A program made the position numbers and the translations under genes. Of a DNA stretch of 64,000 nucleotides, positions 1,868-58,227 are shown piece after piece. Source of the DNA: an uncultured delta proteobacterium (lineage in GTDB: Bacteria; Desulfobacterota; Binatia; Binatales; Binataceae); contig CAWKOR010000001.1 of NCBI GenBank assembly GCA_963851325.1, forward strand, positions 2,676,144 through 2,740,143, given 5' to 3'. The notes beneath the pieces are model-generated. The model was given only the letters and a program-made list of their open reading frames with translations, did no database searches and was not told where the DNA came from. Numbering within the stretch: the stretch's first letter is position 1; each line of letters opens with the position of its first letter.

Positions 1868-5472
<3,605 letters not shown>

Positions 5473-6085: not shown

Positions 6086-6895
6086 ATGCTGGACAAGGTA
6101 AGTCTCGACGGCGTTCAACTGGAGTACGAGATTCATGGCGCGGGTGAGCCGGTCATGCTGATTCATGGCAGCGTGGTCGCCGATTCGTACCTGCCGATGC
6201 TCCCTGAGCCGTCGGTCTCGCGTTACCGGATGGTGCGCTACCGGCGTCGCGGCTTCGGCAACAGCACGCATCCCGATTCGGCCATCAGCATTCGCGAGCA
6301 GGCCAACGACTGCCACGCGCTGATGCGCCATTTGAAGATCGCCAAAGCACACGTGGCGGGACATTCATATGGCGGCGTCATCGCATTGCAACTGGCGCTC
6401 GACCATCCGGAAGTCGTCCATTCGCTGGCCTTGCTCGAACCCGCCCTGGTCGGACAAATCCCCAACTCGGCGGAGTTCATGGCGGGAATGGCTCCGGTAG
6501 TGAAGACTTACCAGGACGGCGACAAACGCGGCGCGCTCAACGGATTTCTCAATTGGGTCGCCGGCCCCGGCTATCGCGCGATGTTCGAGGGCCTTCCCGG
6601 CTCATATGAGATGGCCCTCGCCGACGCCGACAACTTTTTCCGCTTCGAGATGCCTGCGGCAGGTCAGTGGAGTTTCACCCGCGACGATGCACAGCGGATC
6701 GGGCAGCCGGTCCTCGCGATGCTGGGCGCTACCAGCGCGCCGATCTTCCACGAGATTCAGAAGCTGTTGCAGGCGTGGTTTCCGAAAGCCAAGGCGGTCA
6801 CCGTGCCGAAGGCCAACCATATGCTGCAGACGGTCGAGCCACGCGCCGTCGCCGAGGTACTCGCGGGCTTCTGGGCGAGCTGGCCGCTGCGCTGA
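6086..6895 (+). CDS. alpha/beta hydrolase
   Basis: HGSVVADSY oxyanion region and GHSYGG nucleophile elbow. ATG at 6086 preceded by GGAGG. Confidence 0.8.
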   Translation: MLDKVSLDGVQLEYEIHGAGEPVMLIHGSVVADSYLPMLPEPSVSRYRMVRYRRRGFGNSTHPDSAISIREQANDCHALMRHLKIAKAHVAGHSYGGVIALQLALDHPEVVHSLALLEPALVGQIPNSAEFMAGMAPVVKTYQDGDKRGALNGFLNWVAGPGYRAMFEGLPGSYEMALADADNFFRFEMPAAGQWSFTRDDAQRIGQPVLAMLGATSAPIFHEIQKLLQAWFPKAKAVTVPKANHMLQTVEPRAVAEVLAGFWASWPLR

Positions 6896-11990: not shown

Positions 11991-12926
11991 CTAGAACGGC
12001 ATCCATCCGACGACCGGGAAATCGTCGAGGCTGAAATCGATCATCCCCACCACCGCGATTTGCTGATTATGCTCGGAGTCGTGATTGAGTGGCAGTTGTA
12101 CCCCGGTGCTGATCTGGTAAGCGTCCGTCAGGTAACTGATTCCCGGAGTGGCATAGAGGGTTGGGGAACCTTGCTCGCTTCCGCTAACCACAGCATCGAA
12201 GTTGAGCTCGGCGAAGAGGCATAGGTTGCGAATCGGCCACGGAAGCTGGGTCTTCGTCAGATACTGCAAATAGGGGAAGGAGTAGTCGACGACGGGATCG
12301 AAGAATATCTCATCGCCGCCGCCATCATTCAGGATGCGCGAATATCCGAGGTCGCTATGCACCTCGAATGCGCGAAGGAAACCCAGGTTCCATTTCTCCG
12401 GAAGCGCTCCGCCACGCCCGCCCCATAACAGGGCCAGGCCGGCATTGCTGAGGCCGAAGGACTGTCCGAAATCTCCGACGCTGAACGACAGTTGAGGCGC
12501 GACGCCCGCCTGCATGTCCGGCTGATTGATGAACAGCATGCGGCTCAGAACATCGACCGTGCCGAAGCCGGCTTCGCTCGCGCCGTCGTGGGGAGCGAAA
12601 GAGTCCCACGCGCTGTCGACCTCGATGTCGAAATTCGGCGAGATCATCTTGTCCAGTCCGAAGCCGAAGCCCAGGGTTCTGCCTTCGGGGCTTCTGACCC
12701 AGTGCGGCGCGAATGGCGTCACGCTGTTGCCGGGACTCACGTCGATCGCCACCAAAGGTCCCATCATGCCCGGCCCCATGTCGCGCGCTTCCGATCCGAT
12801 TGTAAACGAAGGCGGGTCCGTATCAGCGGGCGATTGAGCGCATGCCTCGTGTGAGGAAATCGCAAGAAGAAGCAATATCGTGAGCGCTATTATCGTTCGG
12901 AAGAATCGATGGACGACCGCAGCCAT
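11991..12926 (-). CDS. putative outer-membrane beta-barrel protein (MetA-pathway/phenol-degradation-like OMP family?)
   Basis: Signal peptide, alternating beta-strand-like composition and a C-terminal Phe (…VGWMPF), as in OMPs. Confidence 0.45.
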   Translation of the reverse strand: MAAVVHRFFRTIIALTILLLLAISSHEACAQSPADTDPPSFTIGSEARDMGPGMMGPLVAIDVSPGNSVTPFAPHWVRSPEGRTLGFGFGLDKMISPNFDIEVDSAWDSFAPHDGASEAGFGTVDVLSRMLFINQPDMQAGVAPQLSFSVGDFGQSFGLSNAGLALLWGGRGGALPEKWNLGFLRAFEVHSDLGYSRILNDGGGDEIFFDPVVDYSFPYLQYLTKTQLPWPIRNLCLFAELNFDAVVSGSEQGSPTLYATPGISYLTDAYQISTGVQLPLNHDSEHNQQIAVVGMIDFSLDDFPVVGWMPF

Positions 12927-13218: not shown

Positions 13219-14196
13219 ATGGCGAAAATGGATTTCAGCAAGGTTCCCCGCTTCGCAGAGCTTCCGGTGAAGAAAGGCGCGCCGGAAGATTCCTCGTGGG
13301 GCGTCTTCGGCGATGATGACGAACTCGGATGCCTCAACTTCCTCACCCCCGAGGCAATCGTCGAGGCCGCCGGGCTGGTGCGTCACGGCAAAGTTTTTCG
13401 CCTCGATACCAAAATCAATTACGCGACCCCGCCGCTCTTCAATCGCAATCCCGCCAAGCACACCATCCTGAGTTTCGAGAGCTATGGCCTGCTCGGGCAC
13501 GATGATTCGATCGACAACTACAACACCCAGGAAGGCAGCCAGTGGGACGGGCTCGGCCACGTTGGACATATCAAGCATCAGGCCTACTACAACGGGGTGA
13601 AGGACAATCAGATCAAGGACGGCCCGGACGGCAAGCTCAGCATCCACAAATGGGCCAACAAGGTAGTGGGCCGCGGCGTGCTCATCGATGCGTTCAAGTT
13701 TCGCAACGAAGCCGGCCGCCCGCTCAATCCGCTCACCGATGACAAATACACGCTGAAGGATTTGCAGGACGCGCTGAAGGCGCAGGCCGGCACCCTCAAG
13801 CCGGGATCGATCCTGCTGGTTCGCACCGGATGGATGCAGGCCTACGAGAAGGCGTCGCCCGCCGACAAAACCGCAATGGCGCCACTCGAGGTCCTCAAGG
13901 CGTGCGGCATCGAGCCGTCGCGCGAGATGGTCGCCTGGCTATGGGATAATCGGGTCGCGGCGATCGGCACCGATTGCCCGGCCGTCGAACCGTGGCCGTG
14001 GAGCTTTCAGGACACCGGCGCGATTCACTATCGCACGCTCTCGATGCTGGGGTTGCCGCTGGGCGAGCAGTTCATCCTCGATCCGCTCGCGGCTGATTGC
14101 GCGGCCGACAAACGCTACGAATTCATGATGGTATCAGTGCCGATGAACCTGGAGGGCGGTATCGCGTCGCCACCGAACGCGGTGGCGATCAAGTAG
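13219..14196 (+). CDS. cyclase family protein (kynurenine formamidase-like, PF04199)
   Basis: HxGTHxDxPxH-like region (QWDGLGHVGH) and cyclase-family architecture. ATG 13219 is 8 nt after GGAGG; the track ORF begins at TTG 13204. Confidence 0.7.
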   Translation: MAKMDFSKVPRFAELPVKKGAPEDSSWGVFGDDDELGCLNFLTPEAIVEAAGLVRHGKVFRLDTKINYATPPLFNRNPAKHTILSFESYGLLGHDDSIDNYNTQEGSQWDGLGHVGHIKHQAYYNGVKDNQIKDGPDGKLSIHKWANKVVGRGVLIDAFKFRNEAGRPLNPLTDDKYTLKDLQDALKAQAGTLKPGSILLVRTGWMQAYEKASPADKTAMAPLEVLKACGIEPSREMVAWLWDNRVAAIGTDCPAVEPWPWSFQDTGAIHYRTLSMLGLPLGEQFILDPLAADCAADKRYEFMMVSVPMNLEGGIASPPNAVAIK

Positions 14197-14240
14197 ACTG
14201 ACTTATTTCATGTCCTATCATGAGTAAGACGTGCTAATCT

Positions 14241-14421
14241 TATGAGTGGCTTTGTTTTTGCCGATCCTGGTCCCCAATGAGTGGGTTTGTTTTCGTGCCA
14301 CCGGCAAGGCAAGGAACATCGTCACAGCCGAGTTCGCCGGCTTCGATTGATAGTGGTTTTGGCCAACCCACCAGACGGAAAGTCCTTTATTTCCAAGGAT
14401 TAAGTGGGTTTGTTTTTGCAC
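14241..14421. repeat. intergenic repeat locus A: three copies of motif ~AGTGGGTTTGTTTTTGC (reverse orientation of CAAAAACAAACCCACT)
   Basis: Copies at about 14241-14262, 14276-14299 and 14399-14421. Same family as loci at 35301-35474 and 56644-56983. Followed by GC hairpin GCGGCGCCCGttttCGGGCGCCGC at about 14457-14480. Confidence 0.7.
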
Positions 14422-14629
14422 AATCACGCAGCCTCACCTGACTCCTCAAATAGCTTGCGGCGCCCGTTTTCGGGCGCCGCGATTCCGATCCTACCATAAT
14501 GTGACTCTTCGTGCATTCTCGCCTGAAAATACCGATCGTCGTGCATATCTGCGCTGAGTGACGCAACCACAGTGTCCGTGATCGAGCACTTCAAGTCCTT
14601 GCTGGGATTCTGAGCATCCGTGACAGCGG

Positions 14630-15271
14630 TCACGATGCTTTCCGCATCTGATGCGGGAGCGCTTCCCGCGCGATGACCGCGACCGCGGCGCGGATCGCAT
14701 CTTCCATCATCGCGACCGGCATGCTCGGGACGGCAGGATCGCGCGCCGACTGCGCCGCATCGAAGGGCAGGTGGATGAACCCGGCAGGGAAGTTCGGGCG
14801 CCGCCGGGTCGCATGCAGCGCGGCATACATCGCGGCGTTGCATGCGTATGCGCCCGCGCTCAGCGAAATCGACGCCGGAACCTTCCGCCGTTCCAGCGCC
14901 TTAAGAATCGGTCCCATCGGTAGTCGCGAGAAGTAAGCATCCGGAGCGTTGTTAATCACCGGATGCCCCCCGAAGCGGGCGTCGAGATGGCCGGCCTTGC
15001 GCTGCTCGAACAGATTGATCGCGATGCGTTCGAGCGACAGCGCGGGCCGGCCGCGCGCCTGGCCGAGCCCCAGGATCGCCCGCGGTCGATAGCGCACGAA
15101 CGCCGCCTCGACGCGTCGCACCGCCGCGAGGCAGTTGACCGGCAAGCGCACCGATTTGACTTGCAGGCCGCCGATGACGTCCCCGTCGAGGTTGCGCGCG
15201 ACCTCCCACGACGGGTTGATGCGCTCGCCGCCGAACGGCGCGAATCCGGTCACCACGATGATGGGCGGCAT
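14630..15271 (-). CDS. pcp: pyroglutamyl-peptidase I (pyrrolidone-carboxylate peptidase)
   Basis: N-terminal VTGFAPFGGERINPS and catalytic Cys region SAGAYACN match Pcp. Confidence 0.8.
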   Translation of the reverse strand: MPPIIVVTGFAPFGGERINPSWEVARNLDGDVIGGLQVKSVRLPVNCLAAVRRVEAAFVRYRPRAILGLGQARGRPALSLERIAINLFEQRKAGHLDARFGGHPVINNAPDAYFSRLPMGPILKALERRKVPASISLSAGAYACNAAMYAALHATRRRPNFPAGFIHLPFDAAQSARDPAVPSMPVAMMEDAIRAAVAVIAREALPHQMRKAS

Positions 15272-18198: not shown

Positions 18199-18581
18199 AC
18201 TCTCATCTGGTAGCGGCCATCGAGGAGTTTAATCGCGGCGAATACTTCAAGGCCGCGGAACTGTTCGAGAACGCCGCCGCCGAGTCCGATGATGCCGGCA
18301 AGACCTTCATCATCACGCTCAATCGCATCGCGGCCGGATTGCATCTTCGCTTCGAACGCGGCGGGCGTCAGGCTGCCATCAACCTGTTCTCGCAGGCGAT
18401 GCTCACACTCGATCAGATGAAGCCCAGCCGCGAGGGTGTCGATATCGAGACGCTGATCACCGAACTGCACGCCTACACCGAGGAGCTTCGCGCGACGCCC
18501 AAGGATGAGGGCGACGGGATGAAGCATCGCGCGCGCCTGTTCCTCGAGCGTCGCCGCGTCCCCAAAATCAAACCCACCTGA
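18195..18581 (+). CDS. DUF309 domain-containing protein
   Basis: FNRGEYFKAAELFE...HxxLE pattern of DUF309. GTG start overlaps the thyX stop. Confidence 0.5.
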   Translation: MNSHLVAAIEEFNRGEYFKAAELFENAAAESDDAGKTFIITLNRIAAGLHLRFERGGRQAAINLFSQAMLTLDQMKPSREGVDIETLITELHAYTEELRATPKDEGDGMKHRARLFLERRRVPKIKPT

Positions 18582-33559: not shown

Positions 33560-34774
33560 ATGCCTAGTCTGGAAGCAACCAAGCAAGTGCCCGAATCGAC
33601 CCAACCGGCGGCCTCCGCGCGCCTGATCCTGTTTATCACGGTGTTCATCGATCTGCTGGGCTTCGGAATCGTGATTCCGCTGCTGCCGATGTTCGCCGGC
33701 CGGATCGGAATTTCATTCACCGGCATCGGCGCGATAATGGCGGTCTACTCGCTGGCGCAATTCATCTTCGCGCCGATCCTGGGGCGGATTTCCGATCGCA
33801 TCGGGCGTCGCCCGGTTATCATGTTGGGACTGCTCGGTTCGTCGGTCGGCTATCTTATTTATGGATTTGCGGGATCGTTCGTCGGGCTTTTTATTTCGCG
33901 CGCCGTGCACGGTGCTTGCGCCGCGACCATCTCGACCGCGCAGGCCTACATCGCGGATACCACCGACGAGTCCAATCGCGCGCGCGGGATGGGCATGATT
34001 GGCGCCGCGTTCGGACTCGGCTTCGTGATCGGCCCCGCGATTGGCGGATTGCTCGGGCACAGCGACTTGCGTATACCGGGATTTTTCGCGGCCGCGCTGA
34101 CCTTTGCGAATCTGCTGTTCGCCGCGCTGCGGCTCCCCGAATCGCATCAACCGGAGCCCGGCGCGCGCATCGACGCCTCGGTGATCGTCGCCCCGATTCG
34201 AGATCTTCCGCTCCAGCTTTTCACCCATCATTTGTCGCGATTGTTTTCCGTCGCGTTCCTCACCACTTTCGCGCTGGCAGCATTCGAAACCACCTTCGCG
34301 ATCATGATCCCAAGCGTATACGGCTATGGCCCCACCGGCATCGGCGCGCTGCTCGCGTTCGCGGGCCTGATGCAGGCGCTCGCGCAAGGCTATCTGGTCG
34401 GGAAATTTGTAAAGCGCATCGGCGAGGCGCGGCTGCTTTCGATCGGCATAATCATGTTCGCGATCGGCCTCGCCCCGATGGCGAACCTGCCGCTACCGTC
34501 GACCCTGCTGCTCGCGCTCGCGCTGCTGTCGTTAGGTTACGGATTCGCCAGTCCGGCCATCGCGAGCCTCATTTCAAAGCGAACCGAGCGCACGCTGGAG
34601 GGCGAGGCGTTGGGCATCAACCAGTCAGCCTCGTCAATGGCGCGAATCCTCGGTCCGCTGGCGGGCGGGCTGGCCTACGCGGCGCTGGGTGCCTCGGCGC
34701 CGTATATGGGTGGTGCGGTTGTAGCGGTCGTGGCATTTATACTTGCGCGCGGCATCAACGAGCCGATGGGCTAG
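33560..34774 (+). CDS. MFS transporter (DHA1/TetA-like)
   Basis: 12-TM MFS with motif A GRISDRIGRRPV. Confidence 0.85.
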   Translation: MPSLEATKQVPESTQPAASARLILFITVFIDLLGFGIVIPLLPMFAGRIGISFTGIGAIMAVYSLAQFIFAPILGRISDRIGRRPVIMLGLLGSSVGYLIYGFAGSFVGLFISRAVHGACAATISTAQAYIADTTDESNRARGMGMIGAAFGLGFVIGPAIGGLLGHSDLRIPGFFAAALTFANLLFAALRLPESHQPEPGARIDASVIVAPIRDLPLQLFTHHLSRLFSVAFLTTFALAAFETTFAIMIPSVYGYGPTGIGALLAFAGLMQALAQGYLVGKFVKRIGEARLLSIGIIMFAIGLAPMANLPLPSTLLLALALLSLGYGFASPAIASLISKRTERTLEGEALGINQSASSMARILGPLAGGLAYAALGASAPYMGGAVVAVVAFILARGINEPMG

Positions 34775-34791
34775 GCCGCCAGGAGAACAAT

Positions 34792-35220
34792 TTGGGCAAC
34801 GTCATCGGCTGGCTACTGGTTTTTCACTTGTTCGGGGTGATCTTCTGGATTGGAAGCTTGCTCCTAATCGCGAGCCTGCTCGCGATGGTCTCCGACGAAG
34901 TGGGAGTCGCGAAAGAGCGCTTCATCATGGTCGCGAGCACTCTGTTCTATGGCGGATGCAATATCGGCGGCGCGGTAACGCTTATCTTCGGCATCCTCCT
35001 GATGGTGATGGTGCCGGACGTTCTGCGCCACGGATGGTTTCACGTCAAACTGACCTTCGTGTTCATCCTGCTGCTGGTGCACCTTCGACTGCATCGCAGA
35101 ATCGTCGCGTTGAGCGACAACCCTTCCTCGGTAACGCGGGCGGAGTTTCGCGTCATTCATGGAGTCGTCAGCGTGGTGTTGCTGGCCATCCTCGTGATGG
35201 CGCTCCTTAGGCCGTTCTAG
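34792..35220 (+). CDS. small polytopic membrane protein, HemJ/CopD-like (UPF0093/TIGR00701-like)
   Basis: 142-aa ORF with four hydrophobic helices, WLLVFHLFGVIFWIGSLL and a conserved His in helix 1. TTG start 7 nt after AGGAGA, 17 nt after the MFS stop. Confidence 0.45.
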   Translation: MGNVIGWLLVFHLFGVIFWIGSLLLIASLLAMVSDEVGVAKERFIMVASTLFYGGCNIGGAVTLIFGILLMVMVPDVLRHGWFHVKLTFVFILLLVHLRLHRRIVALSDNPSSVTRAEFRVIHGVVSVVLLAILVMALLRPF

Positions 35221-35300
35221 TGGTCGAAATCTGCTACAATGCGGATCGCGGCCTTCCTTGAGCCGTGCGTCGATACGGTCATGACGCGAGCACTGATGTG

Positions 35301-35474
35301 GAAATTACCAAACGAACCCACCGAGGGGACGGCATCGGCGAGCGAAAGGTGAAAAACAAACCCATTAAGGGAGCTCGGAACGATCGTCATGCTGAGGTCG
35401 GAATTACATAAACGAACCCACCGAAGGAACTCTGTCGGCATAGGGAAAATTGAAAAAACAAACCCATTAAATCG
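35301..35474. repeat. intergenic repeat locus B: alternating motif types ATTAC(C/A)(A/T)AAACGAACCCACCGA (x2) and AAAAACAAACCCATTAA (x2) in two ~100-bp tandem units
   Basis: Copies at about 35301-35328, 35349-35371, 35401-35427 and 35450-35474. Same family as loci A and C. In a convergent intergenic region. Confidence 0.7.
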
Positions 35475-35660
35475 AGGAAAATAAAGGGTTTTCTTCCAGA
35501 CAATCGGTCGCGCAATCCCCGATCATGTCGTGCTGTTCTCCCCACTCTCATCCGCCCGTCACGGTTCTCGCATCGAAGCCAGCGCGAGAACCGCGCCAAG
35601 CGCCTTCTCTCGCTAGCGAGCGCAGCGACTCATTGGAGTATCGACACAATGTCGGTAAGC

Positions 35661-36419
35661 CTATGGCACTACAATCGACCCACCGCTGATGCTGATGACC
35701 TCGCCGGTGATGTAGGACGACATGTCGCTGGCAAGGAAGAGCGCCAGATTCGCCACTTCGCTCGGCTCGCCCAGGCGGCCCATCGGGTTGCGCTTCTTGG
35801 CGCCCTCGAACATTGACTTGGGATAGATCCGTTCCAGGAACTCGTTGTAGATGACACTGGGCGCGATGGCGTTGACGCGGATGCCCTTGCCCGCGAGTTC
35901 GCCGGCCGCCGCGCGCGTCAGTCCCATCACACCGGCCTTGGCCGCGGAGTACGGCGCCTCGCCACCGGAGGACGCGATCCATCCTGCCGCCGAGGCCATG
36001 TTAACGATCGCGCCCTTGCCCTGTTTGATCATGTGCGGAATCACGGCGCGCATGGTCCACATGGTGCCGCGCAGGCACACATTCATCACCAGGTCCCAGG
36101 TCTCATCCTTGATTTCCCAGATCGGTTCGAGCTTGTTGATGCCGGCGTTGTTGAACAGGATGTCGATGCGGCCGAACTTATCGATCGTCGCCGCGACTGC
36201 ATCTTCGACCTGCTTGCGATTGGTGACGTCGACGCCAATGCCGGGGACTTCGCGATTGAACTGCTTGCTCAGTTCCTCGGCGGCCTCGGCGGTGCGACGC
36301 GGATGCGCATCGGTGATGACGACATTGGCGCCTTCTTCGAGGAAGCGGGTTGCGACCGCGCGTCCGATGCCGACTCCGGCGCCGGCGGTGATCAGGGCAA
36401 CTCTGTCTTTCAGCAGCAT
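35661..36419 (-). CDS. SDR family oxidoreductase
   Basis: TGxxxGIG (ITAGAGVGIGRA), NNAG and YxxxK motifs. Confidence 0.9.
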   Translation of the reverse strand: MLLKDRVALITAGAGVGIGRAVATRFLEEGANVVITDAHPRRTAEAAEELSKQFNREVPGIGVDVTNRKQVEDAVAATIDKFGRIDILFNNAGINKLEPIWEIKDETWDLVMNVCLRGTMWTMRAVIPHMIKQGKGAIVNMASAAGWIASSGGEAPYSAAKAGVMGLTRAAAGELAGKGIRVNAIAPSVIYNEFLERIYPKSMFEGAKKRNPMGRLGEPSEVANLALFLASDMSSYITGEVISISGGSIVVP

Positions 36420-55509: not shown

Positions 55510-56151
55510 ATGAAACTTTATCAAAGCAATCTCTCCAACTACGCAACCAAGACGCGAATTGTGATCTACGAGAAGGGGCTCAAGGTCGATTTCGTTGATC
55601 CGCCGGGCGGGCTCCATTCGGCGGAGTATCAGAAGATCAATCCACTGGACAAAATCCCCTGCCTCGATGTCGATGGGCTCATCATTCCGGAGTCCGAAAT
55701 CATCAACGAGTATCTCGAAGAGAAATATCCCGAGAAACCGCTGCTGCCGAAATCACCGGAAGCGCGCGCCAAGGTTCGCCTCTTCGGCCGCTTCCACGAT
55801 CTCTACCTCGAGCCGCCGCTGCGCGCGCTGTTCGGGCAAATGAATCCCAAGGCGCGCGATGACAAAGTCGTCAACGAGAAGCTGACTGAGGTAAACAAGC
55901 GCCTCGACGAGCTGGAGAAGATGCTCGGTGAGAGCGGCTTCGCGGCGGGCGCCGATTTTACTCTGGCCGATTGCTCGGTCGCGCCGACGATTTTCTTCTG
56001 CAACGCGCTGCTGCCCTCATTCGGCGCCAAACCGCCGTTGGAGGGGCGTCCCAAGATCGCGTCATGGTGGACTCACGTGCAGACGCGCCCGTCAGTGAAG
56101 AAGGGCCTCGGCGAGATGCAGGAAGCGCTCGCGGCAATGAACAGGAAATAG
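55510..56151 (+). CDS. glutathione S-transferase
   Basis: N-terminal thioredoxin-like GST domain (MKLYQSNLSNYATKTRIVIYEKGL...) and a C-terminal alpha domain. GAGGAG RBS. Confidence 0.85.
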   Translation: MKLYQSNLSNYATKTRIVIYEKGLKVDFVDPPGGLHSAEYQKINPLDKIPCLDVDGLIIPESEIINEYLEEKYPEKPLLPKSPEARAKVRLFGRFHDLYLEPPLRALFGQMNPKARDDKVVNEKLTEVNKRLDELEKMLGESGFAAGADFTLADCSVAPTIFFCNALLPSFGAKPPLEGRPKIASWWTHVQTRPSVKKGLGEMQEALAAMNRK

Positions 56152-56195
56152 ATCCAAAACACGCCAGGCCGCAAAATTCGGCCGGGTGGAGCTAA

Positions 56196-56224
56196 GCGGC
56201 ATCCGAGAGGGTGCCGCTTTTTTT
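56196..56224 (+). terminator. rho-independent terminator (GCGGCA-tccgagagggt-TGCCGC followed by T7)
   Basis: 6-bp stem plus TTTTTTT, 45 nt downstream of the GST stop. Confidence 0.7.
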
Positions 56225-56591
56225 CGAGTTGTCGCTCGCAAGCTCCCTGATCTAATTTCGCGCGCGAAAGAAAATGTCCCAGGCATCCCAACACGATTGG
56301 AGGGAACCGGCGTTCGTGGAAGCTCAAACCAGGTACCGACGGTGCCGGAGTGCGCGGGCGGGTTTGCCAACCTCGCGGTCGCGAAGACCCGCATCCTGCA
56401 AAGCAGCCGCCTCAACATCAACAGCCTGTCGAAAGGAAAACATCTGTTCCAGTGCTGCATCCATCCGTGGATGCGGATGGAGGTAGACGTGAAATAGCCT
56501 GCTGGTTCGGCTGTGAGCGATGGGACCCCGAAATCGGCGATAGGATGGCGAAAGTAGCACCACCAGTCACAACCTGATATCATCAAGAGAA

Positions 56592-56625
56592 CGGCGCCCG
56601 CAGGGGTGCCGTTCCCTTTTCGGAG
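56592..56625 (+). terminator. terminator-like hairpin (AACGGCGCC-cgcagg-GGTGCCGTT followed by CCCTTTTC)
   Basis: 9-bp stem with one wobble and a short T-run, at the end of an ~400-nt noncoding stretch. Confidence 0.4.
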
Positions 56626-56643
56626 CGGAGGAATCGCGCGGAT

Positions 56644-56983
56644 GCGAAATTACATAAACGAACCCACCGCGAGCATCGCGAGCGGTGGTCCTGAGGCTCT
56701 GCGAAGGACCTCGAATTGCACCATGCCGAATGCTCAAATCGCAAAAACAAACCCACGGCGAACATCGTGAGCAGTGGTCCTGAGGCTCTGCGAAGGACCT
56801 CGAATTGCACCATGCCGAATGCTCAAATCGCAAAAACAAACCCACTGCGAACATCGTGAGCAGTGGTCCTGAGCGTCCTCGCGAAGGACCTCAGATGGCA
56901 CGGTGACGATCGCGAAATGCATAAACGAACCCACCGCCCAGCTCGGTGGACATTCGAAGTGCAAAAACAAACCCACTGCAAGG
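56644..56983. repeat. intergenic repeat locus C: ~89-bp tandem array (about 3.5 units) carrying motifs GCGAAAT(T/G)(A/C)CATAAACGAACCCACCGC and GCAAAAACAAACCCAC(G/T)GC, each followed by a hairpin whose 3' arm is complementary to CCAC(C/T)GC
   Basis: Units start at about 56644, 56740, 56829 and 56912/56959. Units 2 and 3 are near-identical over 89 bp. Recurrent 6-bp hairpin GGTCCT-N12-AGGACC. Same motif family as loci A and B. A further 8-bp palindrome GGCGATAT...ATATCGCC at 57009-57033. Confidence 0.75.
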
Positions 56984-57066
56984 ATCAGGAGAATGGATGG
57001 TGTAACGTGGCGATATCATTAGGAAATATCGCCACTCAGAAGCAGCGAGCTACGGCAAAAGTCCGC

Positions 57067-58227
57067 TCACATCGAGGCATACAGCGCGTTGAACAGGCGC
57101 GCCGCGCGCGGGTCCAGCAGCGGATCGGATCCCATCTGGTTCATCGTGTAGCCGAACCCGACTTTCGCCGTGGGGTCTGCGAAACCGAGCGAGCCGCCCG
57201 CGCCCGGATGCCCAAAGGTATGCGGGTTGGGTCCCAGTTCAACGCCCGGCTGCGACAGCATGAAGCCCAAGCCGACCCGGGTCTTCTGCTTGAGGACCTC
57301 GTCCATGCCGAATGACTGCTCGGTGTAGCATCGCTCGATGCTCCCCGGGGTCAGCACGCGATAGCCGTCTATTTCGCCGCCACGGGCAAGCGCCGCGTAT
57401 GCCTTGGCAATCGAGCGCGCCGTCGCATGACCATTGGCCGATGGCAGTTCCATCCCGCGCCATGCGCGGCTGTTGACGACGCCGGGGTCGAGCACCGCCC
57501 CGGGGTTCATGATCGCCTTGAAGGTGATCGATTCGGGATCGGCCATCAGGGCGGCGAGCGGATTCACTTCTCCGGGGCCAGAGGGCGGCGCGGGAATGAT
57601 GTTGGTAGTTCGCGAATCGTCCTTCGCATCGAGGCCTATATGAGCGTCGAGGCCGAGCGGAGTGACTATTTCATCGCGGAAGTAAGTACCCAGAGTTTTG
57701 CCACTCGCGCGCCTGACTACCTCGCCCACCAGCCATCCGTAGGTAATCGCATGGTAGCCGTGTTTGGTTCCCGGCACCCACCACGGTTCTTGCGCCGCGA
57801 GGGCGTCAGTCATGGTCTTCCAATCGTACAATGCCTCGGGTGGAAGCGTCTTCCGGATCGCGGGCAATCCGGCGCGATGGCTCAACAGAAATCGCACCGG
57901 AAGTTTATCCTTGCCGGCTTGTGCGAACTCCGGCCAGTACTTCGCAACCGGCGCATCGAGATCGAGTTTGCCCTGATCTACCAGGCGATGCGCGCACATC
58001 GCAGCGAGACCCTTGGTGGTCGAATAGATGTTCACCAGGGTGTCGCGCGTCCACGGCCGGGTGCGCGCCTGATCGGTGTGGCCACCCCACAGATCGACTA
58101 CCAGCTTGCCGTCGATATACATCGCGACCGAAGCGCCGACTTCATTGGTGGTTTCGAAGTTGGCGGCAAAGGCGCCCTTGACGCGGTTGAAACGAGGATC
58201 GCAAGTTCCCTCGATGCTAATCGCCAT
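57067..58227 (-). CDS. serine hydrolase, beta-lactamase/transpeptidase-like (class C beta-lactamase / EstB family)
   Basis: S-x-x-K motif STTK, followed by YxN-like and KTG-like elements. Confidence 0.85.
   Translation of the reverse strand: MAISIEGTCDPRFNRVKGAFAANFETTNEVGASVAMYIDGKLVVDLWGGHTDQARTRPWTRDTLVNIYSTTKGLAAMCAHRLVDQGKLDLDAPVAKYWPEFAQAGKDKLPVRFLLSHRAGLPAIRKTLPPEALYDWKTMTDALAAQEPWWVPGTKHGYHAITYGWLVGEVVRRASGKTLGTYFRDEIVTPLGLDAHIGLDAKDDSRTTNIIPAPPSGPGEVNPLAALMADPESITFKAIMNPGAVLDPGVVNSRAWRGMELPSANGHATARSIAKAYAALARGGEIDGYRVLTPGSIERCYTEQSFGMDEVLKQKTRVGLGFMLSQPGVELGPNPHTFGHPGAGGSLGFADPTAKVGFGYTMNQMGSDPLLDPRAARLFNALYASM

Follow-up and report, generated by a model that had tools for sequence, protein, structure and literature searches.

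What is the tandem repeat of about 89 bp that lies between a GST gene and a convergent esterase gene in this Binataceae genome: a functional array in its own right, or a local state of something more general? A preliminary description, made from the sequence of the 64,000-nt stretch analysed here (the window), treated the repeat as the unit of interest and proposed a tandem small-RNA array or a satellite-like regulatory array. The locus is instead one member of a dispersed family of head-body-tail elements, a membership that this description had missed, and the conserved feature is that architecture and not the 89-bp period. We hold with high confidence that the segment at 56575-57006 is a copy of a dispersed modular family whose tandem was made by recent duplication.

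Structure and gene context of the locus

Tandem Repeats Finder bore out the ~89-bp repeat as the sole long-period tandem array of the 64-kb window (56656-56892, period 89, 2.6 copies, 93% matches, score 400), and a repeat search located a 23-nt box five times, at 56648, 56737, 56826, 56915 and 56957, giving spacings of 89, 89, 89 and 42 nt. What had been counted as about 3.5 copies of one unit proved to be three two-hairpin units of 89-91 nt followed by two shorter units that share only the box with them (Table 1).

The locus has as neighbours genes for GST, a beta-lactamase-family hydrolase and an FAA hydrolase. The ORF-poor stretch of about 400 nt that had been placed 3′ of the array was misplaced, as the convergent beta-lactamase-family gene lies there; a stretch of about 400 nt without a Pfam-supported gene is found upstream, at 56220-56575. 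The span originally given for the array also took in the hairpin at 57007-57035, which we assign to the 3′ end of the esterase gene because its fold is more stable on the esterase strand in all four orthologues (for example, −11.6 versus −3.1 kcal/mol in L001). At the orthologous locus, unit 5, this hairpin and the end of the esterase gene together show 86% mean column identity over a 121-column alignment. The closest relatives, members of Candidatus Binataceae, are 92-94% identical in the hydrolase protein (scan with one genome per species).

Table 1 Features of the locus and of its two sister elements in the window.
Feature	Position	Strand	Remarks
Box-array element, one copy	56575-57006	+	Head and five box units
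Head part 1: extended −10-like TGATATCAT	56575-56583	+	Family consensus (TR)TGnTAnnAT; putative promoter
Head part 2: GC-rich hairpin AAGAGAACGGCGCCC / GGGTGCCGTTCCCTT, then TTTT	56585-56618	+	15-nt arms, 87% complementary
Purine-rich linker, head hairpin to first box	56619-56646	+	Length and composition conserved, sequence not
Unit 1: G-type box (ATTACATAAACGAACCCACCG) and two-hairpin module T1	56647-56735	+	Model R1, 88 bits; helices backed by covariation
Unit 2: A-type box (TCGCAAAAACAAACCCAC) and T1	56736-56824	+	Chimera; 48/49 to unit 3, 40/40 to unit 1
Unit 3: A-type box and T1	56825-56914	+	3′ half diverged; model R1, 76 bits
Unit 4: G-type box and simple hairpin CCACCG-N7-CGGTGG	56915-56956	+	42 nt; minus strand flagged terminator-like in scan
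Unit 5: A-type box and conserved purine-rich segment TCAGGAGAATGGATGGTGTAACG	56957-57006	+	Kept at orthologous locus of L001, L002 and L003
Hairpin GTGGCGATAT-N9-ATATCGCCAC	57007-57035	−	3′ end of convergent esterase transcript, outside array
GST gene	55510-56151	+	Clear intrinsic terminator at 56194-56219
103-codon ORF	between GST gene and array		No Pfam match
Beta-lactamase-family serine hydrolase (esterase) gene	57067-58227	−	Convergent; stop codon ~30 nt from array end
Sister element 1: head TGCTACAAT at 35232, boxes at 35310, 35354, 35410 and 35456 (G-A-G-A), tail module	35232-35500	+	Between convergent genes
Sister element 2: head TGGTAGGAT at 14496, GCGGCGCCCG hairpin, boxes at 14415, 14292 and 14257	14200-14500	−	Between convergent genes

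A dispersed family of box arrays

Each unit opens with the box, an A/C-rich sequence of about 20 nt with the core AAACRAACCCA. Copies of the core AAACRAACCCAC number 13 in the window, where 0.26 would be expected (~50-fold; 0 of 100 shuffles reach 13), and 12 of the 13 fall in three intergenic arrays, at 14247-14415 (−), at 35310-35467 (+) and at the present locus. Two box types are found in the body, G-type (TTACMWAAACGAACCCACCG) and A-type (GTGCAAAAACAAACCCAYT), often alternating and then followed by interchangeable modules. When about 20 arrays were cut at their boxes, a plan of head, body and tail became visible, and most Binataceae-type arrays fit it. Arrays hold two to five units; in the sister arrays the distance from box to box ranges from 35 to ~170 nt and the content is unrelated, the inserts between boxes being about 15 to 150 nt long and some of them duplicated. 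Tails often carry AAACCCAYTWAAW...GGGTTTT and a TTATCGAC-N5-GTCGATAA hairpin.

The exact box is present in 6 of 78 fetched genome loci, to which a slightly relaxed core adds few. Arrays of at least two boxes occur in seven of the 78 loci, from five metagenome-assembled genomes (MAGs), three of them the window's closest relatives; the family is therefore confined to a sub-clade of Candidatus Binataceae. Carrier genomes have roughly one element per 20 kb, and short-read assemblies break at array loci. All three arrays of the window lie in gaps between convergent genes, although just 8 of its 53 gaps are convergent; across Binataceae-type loci the orientation of the flanking genes is mixed, divergent and co-directional upstream positions included. 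Clustering of all ORFs within 2.5 kb of about 130 arrays recovered no recurrent gene family beyond orthologous flanks, the neighbours being unrelated housekeeping genes.

A promoter-like head at a fixed distance

The head has a constant order: TGnTAnnAT (often TGTGCTAGGAT), 5-7 nt, a GGCGCC-type hairpin of 8-10 bp, a short U-run and a purine-rich linker. The positions TG.TA..(A)T are invariant among 12 aligned heads, and several copies have the TRTG form. These invariant positions correspond to the informative positions of a sigma-70 extended −10 element, and the head varies where a sigma-70 −10 is free. The −10-like element precedes the first box by 77-82 nt in every genome-derived copy, and the head signature (the element with a GGCGYY hairpin), found seven times in the window and the 78 genome loci (~1.4 Mb), is followed by a box array in all seven cases. 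We infer from this pattern that the head element is a promoter; no −35 element was found at the head, and a simple promoter scan of the locus returned no matches.

The head hairpin is strand-specific. In the 12 heads, 94% of cells are paired, including 11 G.U cells that become C.A on the opposite strand, and in 14 of 15 heads the fold of the box-sense strand is the more stable one, by ~5 kcal/mol on average. L002, L003, L141a and L154 have a divergent upstream gene and show the same bias; there the head hairpin therefore cannot be the terminator of the upstream gene.

Module T1 and the folding of the array

Units 1-3 carry the same module, T1, which consists of hairpin 1, CCAC(C/T)GC...GC(G/A)GTGG, and hairpin 2, GGTCCT-N12-AGGACC, the stem of the latter being lengthened by tandem G.A pairs. 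Both hairpins had been described, and both are supported by compensatory changes in an alignment of 14 T1 copies from several genomes, in which 80% of cells are paired and 7 of 12 pairs show double-sided changes. Because the covariation score (0.293) exceeds that of shuffled alignments (0.150; 0 of 500 reach 0.293) and of slid controls (at most 0.17), we regard the T1 hairpins as real. The paired arm differences reported earlier hold in part: unit 1 (CCACCGC/GCGGTGG) and unit 3 (CCACTGC/GCAGTGG) do differ in a compensatory way, but the pair originally cited, CCACGGC versus CCACTGC with GCAGTGG constant, does not, for the G of the unit 2 arm CCACGGC gives a G.A mismatch against GCAGTGG.

With 5 G.U cells versus 6 A.C cells, the T1 stems favour neither strand, and these hairpins could act just as well in DNA or on either strand. 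Folding of the whole locus gave z = −4.4 on the plus (sense) strand versus −2.0 on the minus (antisense) strand; the earlier suggestion that the array is structured and that an RNA product is plausible is supported. A rule that every box closes a hairpin was rejected for the family: in minimum-free-energy folds, boxes pair with downstream sequence at 48% versus 44% in shuffled controls. A search with model R1 detected no further T1 modules outside the known carriers. Array ends yielded no convincing terminator on the sense strand, the purine-rich end module of unit 5 and many tail units are terminator-like on neither strand, and a scan of the units found no promoter-like site on either strand.

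Origin of the 89-bp tandem and turnover of units

Over the stretch that runs from its box to GGTCCTGAG, unit 2 agrees with unit 3 at 48 of 49 positions, and beyond that point it agrees with unit 1 at 40 of 40. Because unit 2 is thus a chimera of its neighbours, we conclude that one unequal crossover turned two T1 units into three. Unit 2 is what such a crossover between an ancestral G-type T1 and an A-type T1 should yield.

A comparison with relatives points the same way. In L001 the orthologous locus holds a single full T1 along with other units, one of them a weaker, degenerate T1 copy; in L003 it holds one T1 and in L002 none, so that full T1 units number 1, 0 and 1 against three here. Since relatives have one T1 or none, a pattern that the preliminary description had itself linked to recent duplication, the 89-bp tandem is a recent duplication. 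Taken together, units that lack a promoter-like site of their own, a tandem state that is not conserved and a chimeric middle unit argue against the tandem small-RNA array or satellite proposed before.

The head and the hydrolase-proximal unit 5 are kept in all four genomes (the window, L001, L002 and L003). In a second, probably orthologous pair, the sister element at 35232-35500 has four units versus two in L174. From the differing units at the orthologous locus and in this pair, we therefore conclude that units turn over fast and that the plan is kept. Both T1 subtypes also recur at other loci of another genome (L141), at ~88% identity by hand count; modules have therefore been exchanged or have spread between arrays.

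Box arrays in other metagenome contigs

At least 120 metagenome contigs carry two boxes 20-50 nt apart, with ~2 estimated by chance. Among the matches listed, about 15 contigs are Binataceae-like; most of the other listed contigs have a GC content of 31-66%, come from sediments, peat and soils, and bear arrays of aatATGCRAAACRAACCCAATyt. These other arrays reach 14 boxes with G-poor inserts, include runs with an 11-nt period (for example, ATTCAAACCCAATTCAAAGCCAATACAAACCCA) and frequently show a ~90-nt unit, for which no consensus secondary structure was obtained on either strand.

The boxes of the other contigs and the A-type box of Binataceae have TGCA(A)AAACRAACCCA in common, including flanking bases that lay outside the search pattern, and the G and AAAGCC box variants are likewise common to both groups. 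One array, L161, mixes the Binataceae-type and other-contig styles. A shared recognition partner would be the simplest explanation for the common box. A bolder proposal, which we consider doubtful, is that box arrays form a widespread undescribed class of elements, present in Binataceae and in quite different bacteria, whose ~17-nt core TGCA(A)AAACRAACCCA would be read by a conserved host factor, the Binataceae members being own-promoter, multi-box decoy or platform RNAs with a CsrB/CrcZ-like logic and many loci per genome.

Proposed reading and its rivals

Our favoured interpretation, to which we give a probability of roughly 0.45, is that the element is an independently transcribed, modular non-coding RNA of the plus strand with its own extended −10 promoter. 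Transcription would start from the head and yield a non-coding RNA of roughly 400-450 nt, stabilised by a 5′-terminal stem-loop and with several box copies set between hairpin modules. The functional core would be the boxes rather than the hairpins, with the boxes serving as repeated recognition sites for a hypothetical box-binding factor, so that the RNA would act as a multivalent decoy or platform. Because the boxes are direct repeats, units should be readily gained, lost and swapped by recombination, and such recombination would explain the rapid turnover of content among close relatives. Observations in line with an RNA product are the head at a fixed distance, its strand-biased hairpin, the folding z of the sense strand, the covariation of T1 and the independence from neighbours (mixed orientation, no recurring neighbour family). 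Those on the other side are the missing −35, the lack of a convincing sense terminator, T1 stems without strand bias, a density of roughly one element per 20 kb, which exceeds what one expects of a regulatory RNA and is usual among selfish repeats, and the placement of all three window copies in convergent gaps, like parasitic or terminator-type repeats.

Several of the latter observations would be expected if the element were a REP/BIME/BOX-like interspersed DNA repeat that has no dedicated RNA product and spreads, or is tolerated, in 3′ intergenic space, an explanation that we think possible but somewhat less likely. On the minus strand, a T1 or G-type unit would then supply a hairpin followed by GUUUGUUUUUGC, stacked as weak intrinsic terminators or acting as 3′ stabilisers of the esterase mRNA, with the head hairpin playing that part for plus-strand transcripts. 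The array and its immediate flanks indeed contain three minus-strand terminator-like sites, of which two lie at boxes; the expectation for the entire scanned region was 1.3. The preference for convergent gaps in the window, the abundance and modularity of the elements, the unit number varying between relatives, the unbiased T1 stems and the breaking of short-read assemblies fit as well, and pneumococcal BOX, RUP and SPRITE repeats share these traits (PMC3049150). However, orientation to neighbours is mixed across Binataceae-type loci, box pairing near the shuffled level means that a hairpin abutting a U-tract is not a family rule, unit 5 and many tail units are terminator-like on neither strand, and the box arrays of other metagenome contigs lack hairpins. 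A DNA repeat also leaves unexplained the −10-like element at its fixed distance and the sense-only G.U pairs that persist where the upstream gene is divergent. We therefore rank the own-promoter RNA above the DNA repeat; the two are not exclusive, since expression is compatible with mobility or recombination.

Other readings are less probable still. The earlier version of the RNA hypothesis, in which each ~89-bp unit is a separate sRNA gene and transcription unit as in NsiR1, draws on the periodic, structured units, on the hairpin and U-run that end the minus strand of each unit and on the existence of tandem sRNA genes with their own promoters (PMC4030482). We dismiss it as very improbable because the units have no promoters: one −10-like head serves each array. 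The changing number of full units at orthologous loci, the recent recombinant in the middle and the sister-array units of 35 to ~170 nt with unrelated content count against it too. Somewhat less remote, although still improbable, is a role of the boxes as duplex-DNA binding sites in iteron-like, centromere-like or nucleoid-protein arrays; it is by primary sequence, and not by a hairpin, that the box is defined, the 11-nt period in other contigs is about one helical turn and their ~90-nt unit has no consensus structure. Yet spacing in Binataceae-type arrays is irregular (35 to ~170 bp), the covariation of the hairpins and the G.U pairs confined to the sense strand suggest a single-stranded nucleic acid, and no DNA-binding gene lies consistently near the arrays. 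Least credible are a repeat RNA of the antitoxin or CRISPR type and a series of very short coding repeats. The direct repetition around inserts that vary recalls the former, and some frames cross several boxes (by eye; not significant). CRISPR identity, already denied in the preliminary description, was rejected because inserts are irregular in length and duplicated and no cas gene recurs near the arrays; no toxin gene recurs there either. Coding units were rejected because a period of 89 nt is not divisible by 3, because reading frames are not maintained with respect to the boxes, and because ORFs are not conserved between L055 and L058.

Relation to known systems

Judged by its architecture, the element appears closest in kind to composite interspersed repeats such as BOX. 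Like BOX, it is a dispersed intergenic composite repeat with fixed end modules, variable tandem internal modules and predicted stem-loops, its copy number varies between strains, and it is over-represented in convergent gaps, in the case of the Binataceae element within this window only. About 20 arrays follow a BOX-type composite plan, with fixed ends, two to five units and a dispersed intergenic location, which is a likeness of kind and not of sequence family; homology to the boxA, boxB or boxC sequences is very unlikely, given an unrelated host phylum and 61% GC. Among pneumococcal and streptococcal BOX elements (boxA-(boxB)n-boxC), module diversity can be larger in some lineages, such as S. 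suis (PMC3049150). The Binataceae elements differ in that all units start with the same ~20-nt box and only the remainder is interchangeable, in the −10-like element and strand-specific hairpin of the head, and in the presence of the box in arrays of very different metagenome contigs. The promoter-like, strand-specific head and a box recurring across distant lineages set the element apart from BOX-like repeats.

The parallel with REP elements is looser. REP and BIME sequences of enterobacteria and pseudomonads are abundant, clustered extragenic palindromes that can act as terminators or mRNA stabilisers; REPs carry a 5′ GTAG, alternate in orientation within BIMEs and are associated with RAYT, an IS200/IS605-like Y1 transposase. 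Abundant clustered units and a conserved short 5′ motif beside a hairpin with a variable stem are features in common, whereas the Binataceae units are all direct, have AAACRAACCCA as the conserved motif in place of GTAG, and do not consistently include the box in a hairpin. No RAYT-like gene was seen among the array neighbours inspected.

Multi-site decoy RNAs such as CsrB and RsmZ, with GGA motifs, and CrcZ, with AAnAAnAA motifs, are encoded at one to three loci per genome. They share with the Binataceae elements one promoter (here predicted), a short single-stranded motif repeated between hairpins and a motif number that varies among relatives; unlike them, the Binataceae elements occupy tens to hundreds of loci per genome, have no clear terminator and are not enriched in GGA. 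The NsiR1 genes of heterocystous cyanobacteria are tandem, structured sRNA repeats, each with its own promoter (PMC4030482). These are also tandem direct repeats, and the Binataceae array may, like NsiR1, encode a structured small RNA, but NsiR1 has a promoter and terminator for each repeat at one conserved locus, whereas the Binataceae family has one head per array, heterogeneous units and many loci. CRISPR arrays and type III antitoxins (ToxI) likewise have a leader ahead of direct repeats that are separated by other sequence; the Binataceae inserts differ in their range of about 15 to 150 nt and their occasional duplication, with no cas or toxN-like gene nearby. The Binataceae repeat, moreover, is not palindromic and lacks CRISPR-like regularity, as the spacing of 89, 89, 89 and 42 illustrates.

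Significance

Binataceae (phylum Binatota) are uncultured bacteria common in soils, and a search of titles and abstracts under the taxon names returned no literature on their non-coding genome. A small structured non-coding RNA is the function that we favour, and the REP/BIME/BOX-like DNA repeat giving minus-strand terminators is a serious rival. If transcribed, these elements would give Binatota its first candidate regulatory RNA family and would show with unusual clarity how a modular RNA evolves when units are shuffled between boxes in direct repeat. Should the elements prove selfish or structural, they would still have practical weight: short-read assemblies break at them, they mark synteny breakpoints, and their unit number could help to tell strains apart. 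That arrays of unrelated metagenome contigs contain the same box is a hint of a conserved recognition partner.

Searches for a known family, partner or origin

Rfam returned no match in the window at the gathering threshold, all hits in 56100-57200 at E ≤ 10 being far below cut-off, and only tRNAs at gathering on 20 related loci. A tRNA-derived origin was rejected, there being no tRNA in the window. A literature string search for the box sequence retrieved only unrelated primer sequences, a plasmid collection gave no match for a Binataceae array or an other-contig array, and two matches in viral contigs were both unrelated repeats. The esterase protein had no record in public assemblies.

Known binding motifs were also considered as identities for the box. 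One array (L145) lies upstream of mraZ, but an MraZ site was rejected because mraZ has separate GTGG-N6 repeats and the box differs. The Hfq/Crc motif AAnAAnAA is matched by the A-type box AAAAACAAA but not by the G-type box or the boxes of other contigs. A sigma-54 promoter on the minus strand (GTGGGTTTGTTTTTGCA, GG-N10-GC) was rejected because the A-type box alone fits (by eye); the G-type box lacks the sigma-54 GC, and the box of other metagenome contigs is one base short. A CsrA decoy was rejected on the count of GGA, which occurs 131 times in 5.7 kb of arrays versus 125 ± 8.5 in dinucleotide-shuffled sequence (z = 0.7). AGGA is mildly enriched in the same 5.7 kb (z = 3.8).

Distribution and setting of the box arrays

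Among the matches listed from a metagenome scan for paired boxes (contigs L079-L198), many contigs, spanning 31-66% GC, hold arrays of the same box, with as many as 14 boxes per array and the consensus aatATGCRAAACRAACCCAATyt. Inserts in these arrays are G-poor and include runs with an 11-nt period. A unit of ~90 nt, which includes ATGAACGTAA-N10-AACAAAGGATTATGAAAA, is recurrent; no consensus RNA structure was found for it on either strand, and it translates as a short frame, 'MNVxxxxTKDYEN', whose ATG is lost in some copies. Convergent gaps account for only 8 of 53 in the window, yet they hold all three of its box arrays; in other genomes, arrays were found in tandem and divergent gaps too. 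A single further box match in the window (AATCAAACCCAC, one mismatch), with no second box or head nearby, is probably due to chance.

Coordinates of arrays and associated features (window coordinates unless a locus is named)
Feature	Position	Strand	Remark
Example metagenome array	L097:6013-6706	-	
Example metagenome array	L087:6821-7045	-	
Example metagenome array	L100:5035-5097	+	
Example metagenome array	L100:7896-7958	-	
Array-bearing convergent gap	14196-14630		
Array-bearing convergent gap	34774-35661		
Array-bearing convergent gap	56497-57067		
Lone box match	18566-18577	+	end of coding ORF
Recurrent hairpin	L055:~12760-12790		
Recurrent hairpin	L058:~12830-12860		
Recurrent hairpin	L141:~6740-6770		
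Recurrent hairpin	L177:~2375-2400		
Recurrent hairpin	L101:~5255-5280		
Three direct repeats, 10-nt period	L145:4320-4380	-	directly before mraZ start codon
Transposase-like ORF call	L057:18769-20607	-	~400 nt downstream of array
103-codon ORF	56186-56497	+	between GST terminator and array head
Unit-5 short frame	56994-57023	+	also orthologous positions, L001-L003
Contig end, L201			9 nt past GST gene
Contig end, L202	~56679		inside unit 1

Elements accompanying arrays at other loci

A hairpin, TTATCGAC-N5-GTCGATAA, recurs ~40-50 nt beyond the last box in several arrays, one copy carrying the compensatory variant ACCGAC/GTCGGT; none was found in the window's three arrays. At locus L145, the repeats preceding mraZ (GTGGCGGAAG GTGGTTGAAC GCGGAAGTTT) look similar to the MraZ operator of other bacteria, and the box array lies ~180 nt farther upstream. 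At locus L057, a crude ORF call fuses an IS3-family-like transposase N-terminus, at its start, to an unrelated membrane-protein-like region; it probably reflects a disrupted gene or a mis-call.

Flanks of the array downstream of GST

The 103-codon ORF had no Pfam match and no significant PDB match. Its C-terminus (HLFQCCIHPWMRMEVDV) looks, on visual inspection, like Cys-x2-His-x2-Met, the copper site found in amicyanin and other small cupredoxins, and the ORF could be a gene remnant. A short frame opens at the AGGAGAATG conserved in unit 5 and reads M-D/N-x-V-T-x-R-N/Y-H... in the window and in the relatives' loci L001-L003; in the latter it is 29-31 codons long and enters the end of the hydrolase gene in antisense orientation, and the window's version stops after 9 codons owing to a TGG to TAG change. 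Its translation seems unlikely because the SD-like motif lies only 1-2 nt from the ATG.

Two further public assemblies (L201 and L202) encode an identical GST, and the contigs of both end at the array or shortly ahead of it, as is typical of a repeat that cannot be spanned by short reads. Relative to the window, L202 carries two substitutions adjoining the head hairpin, one of which restores pairing at a mismatch in the extended stem.
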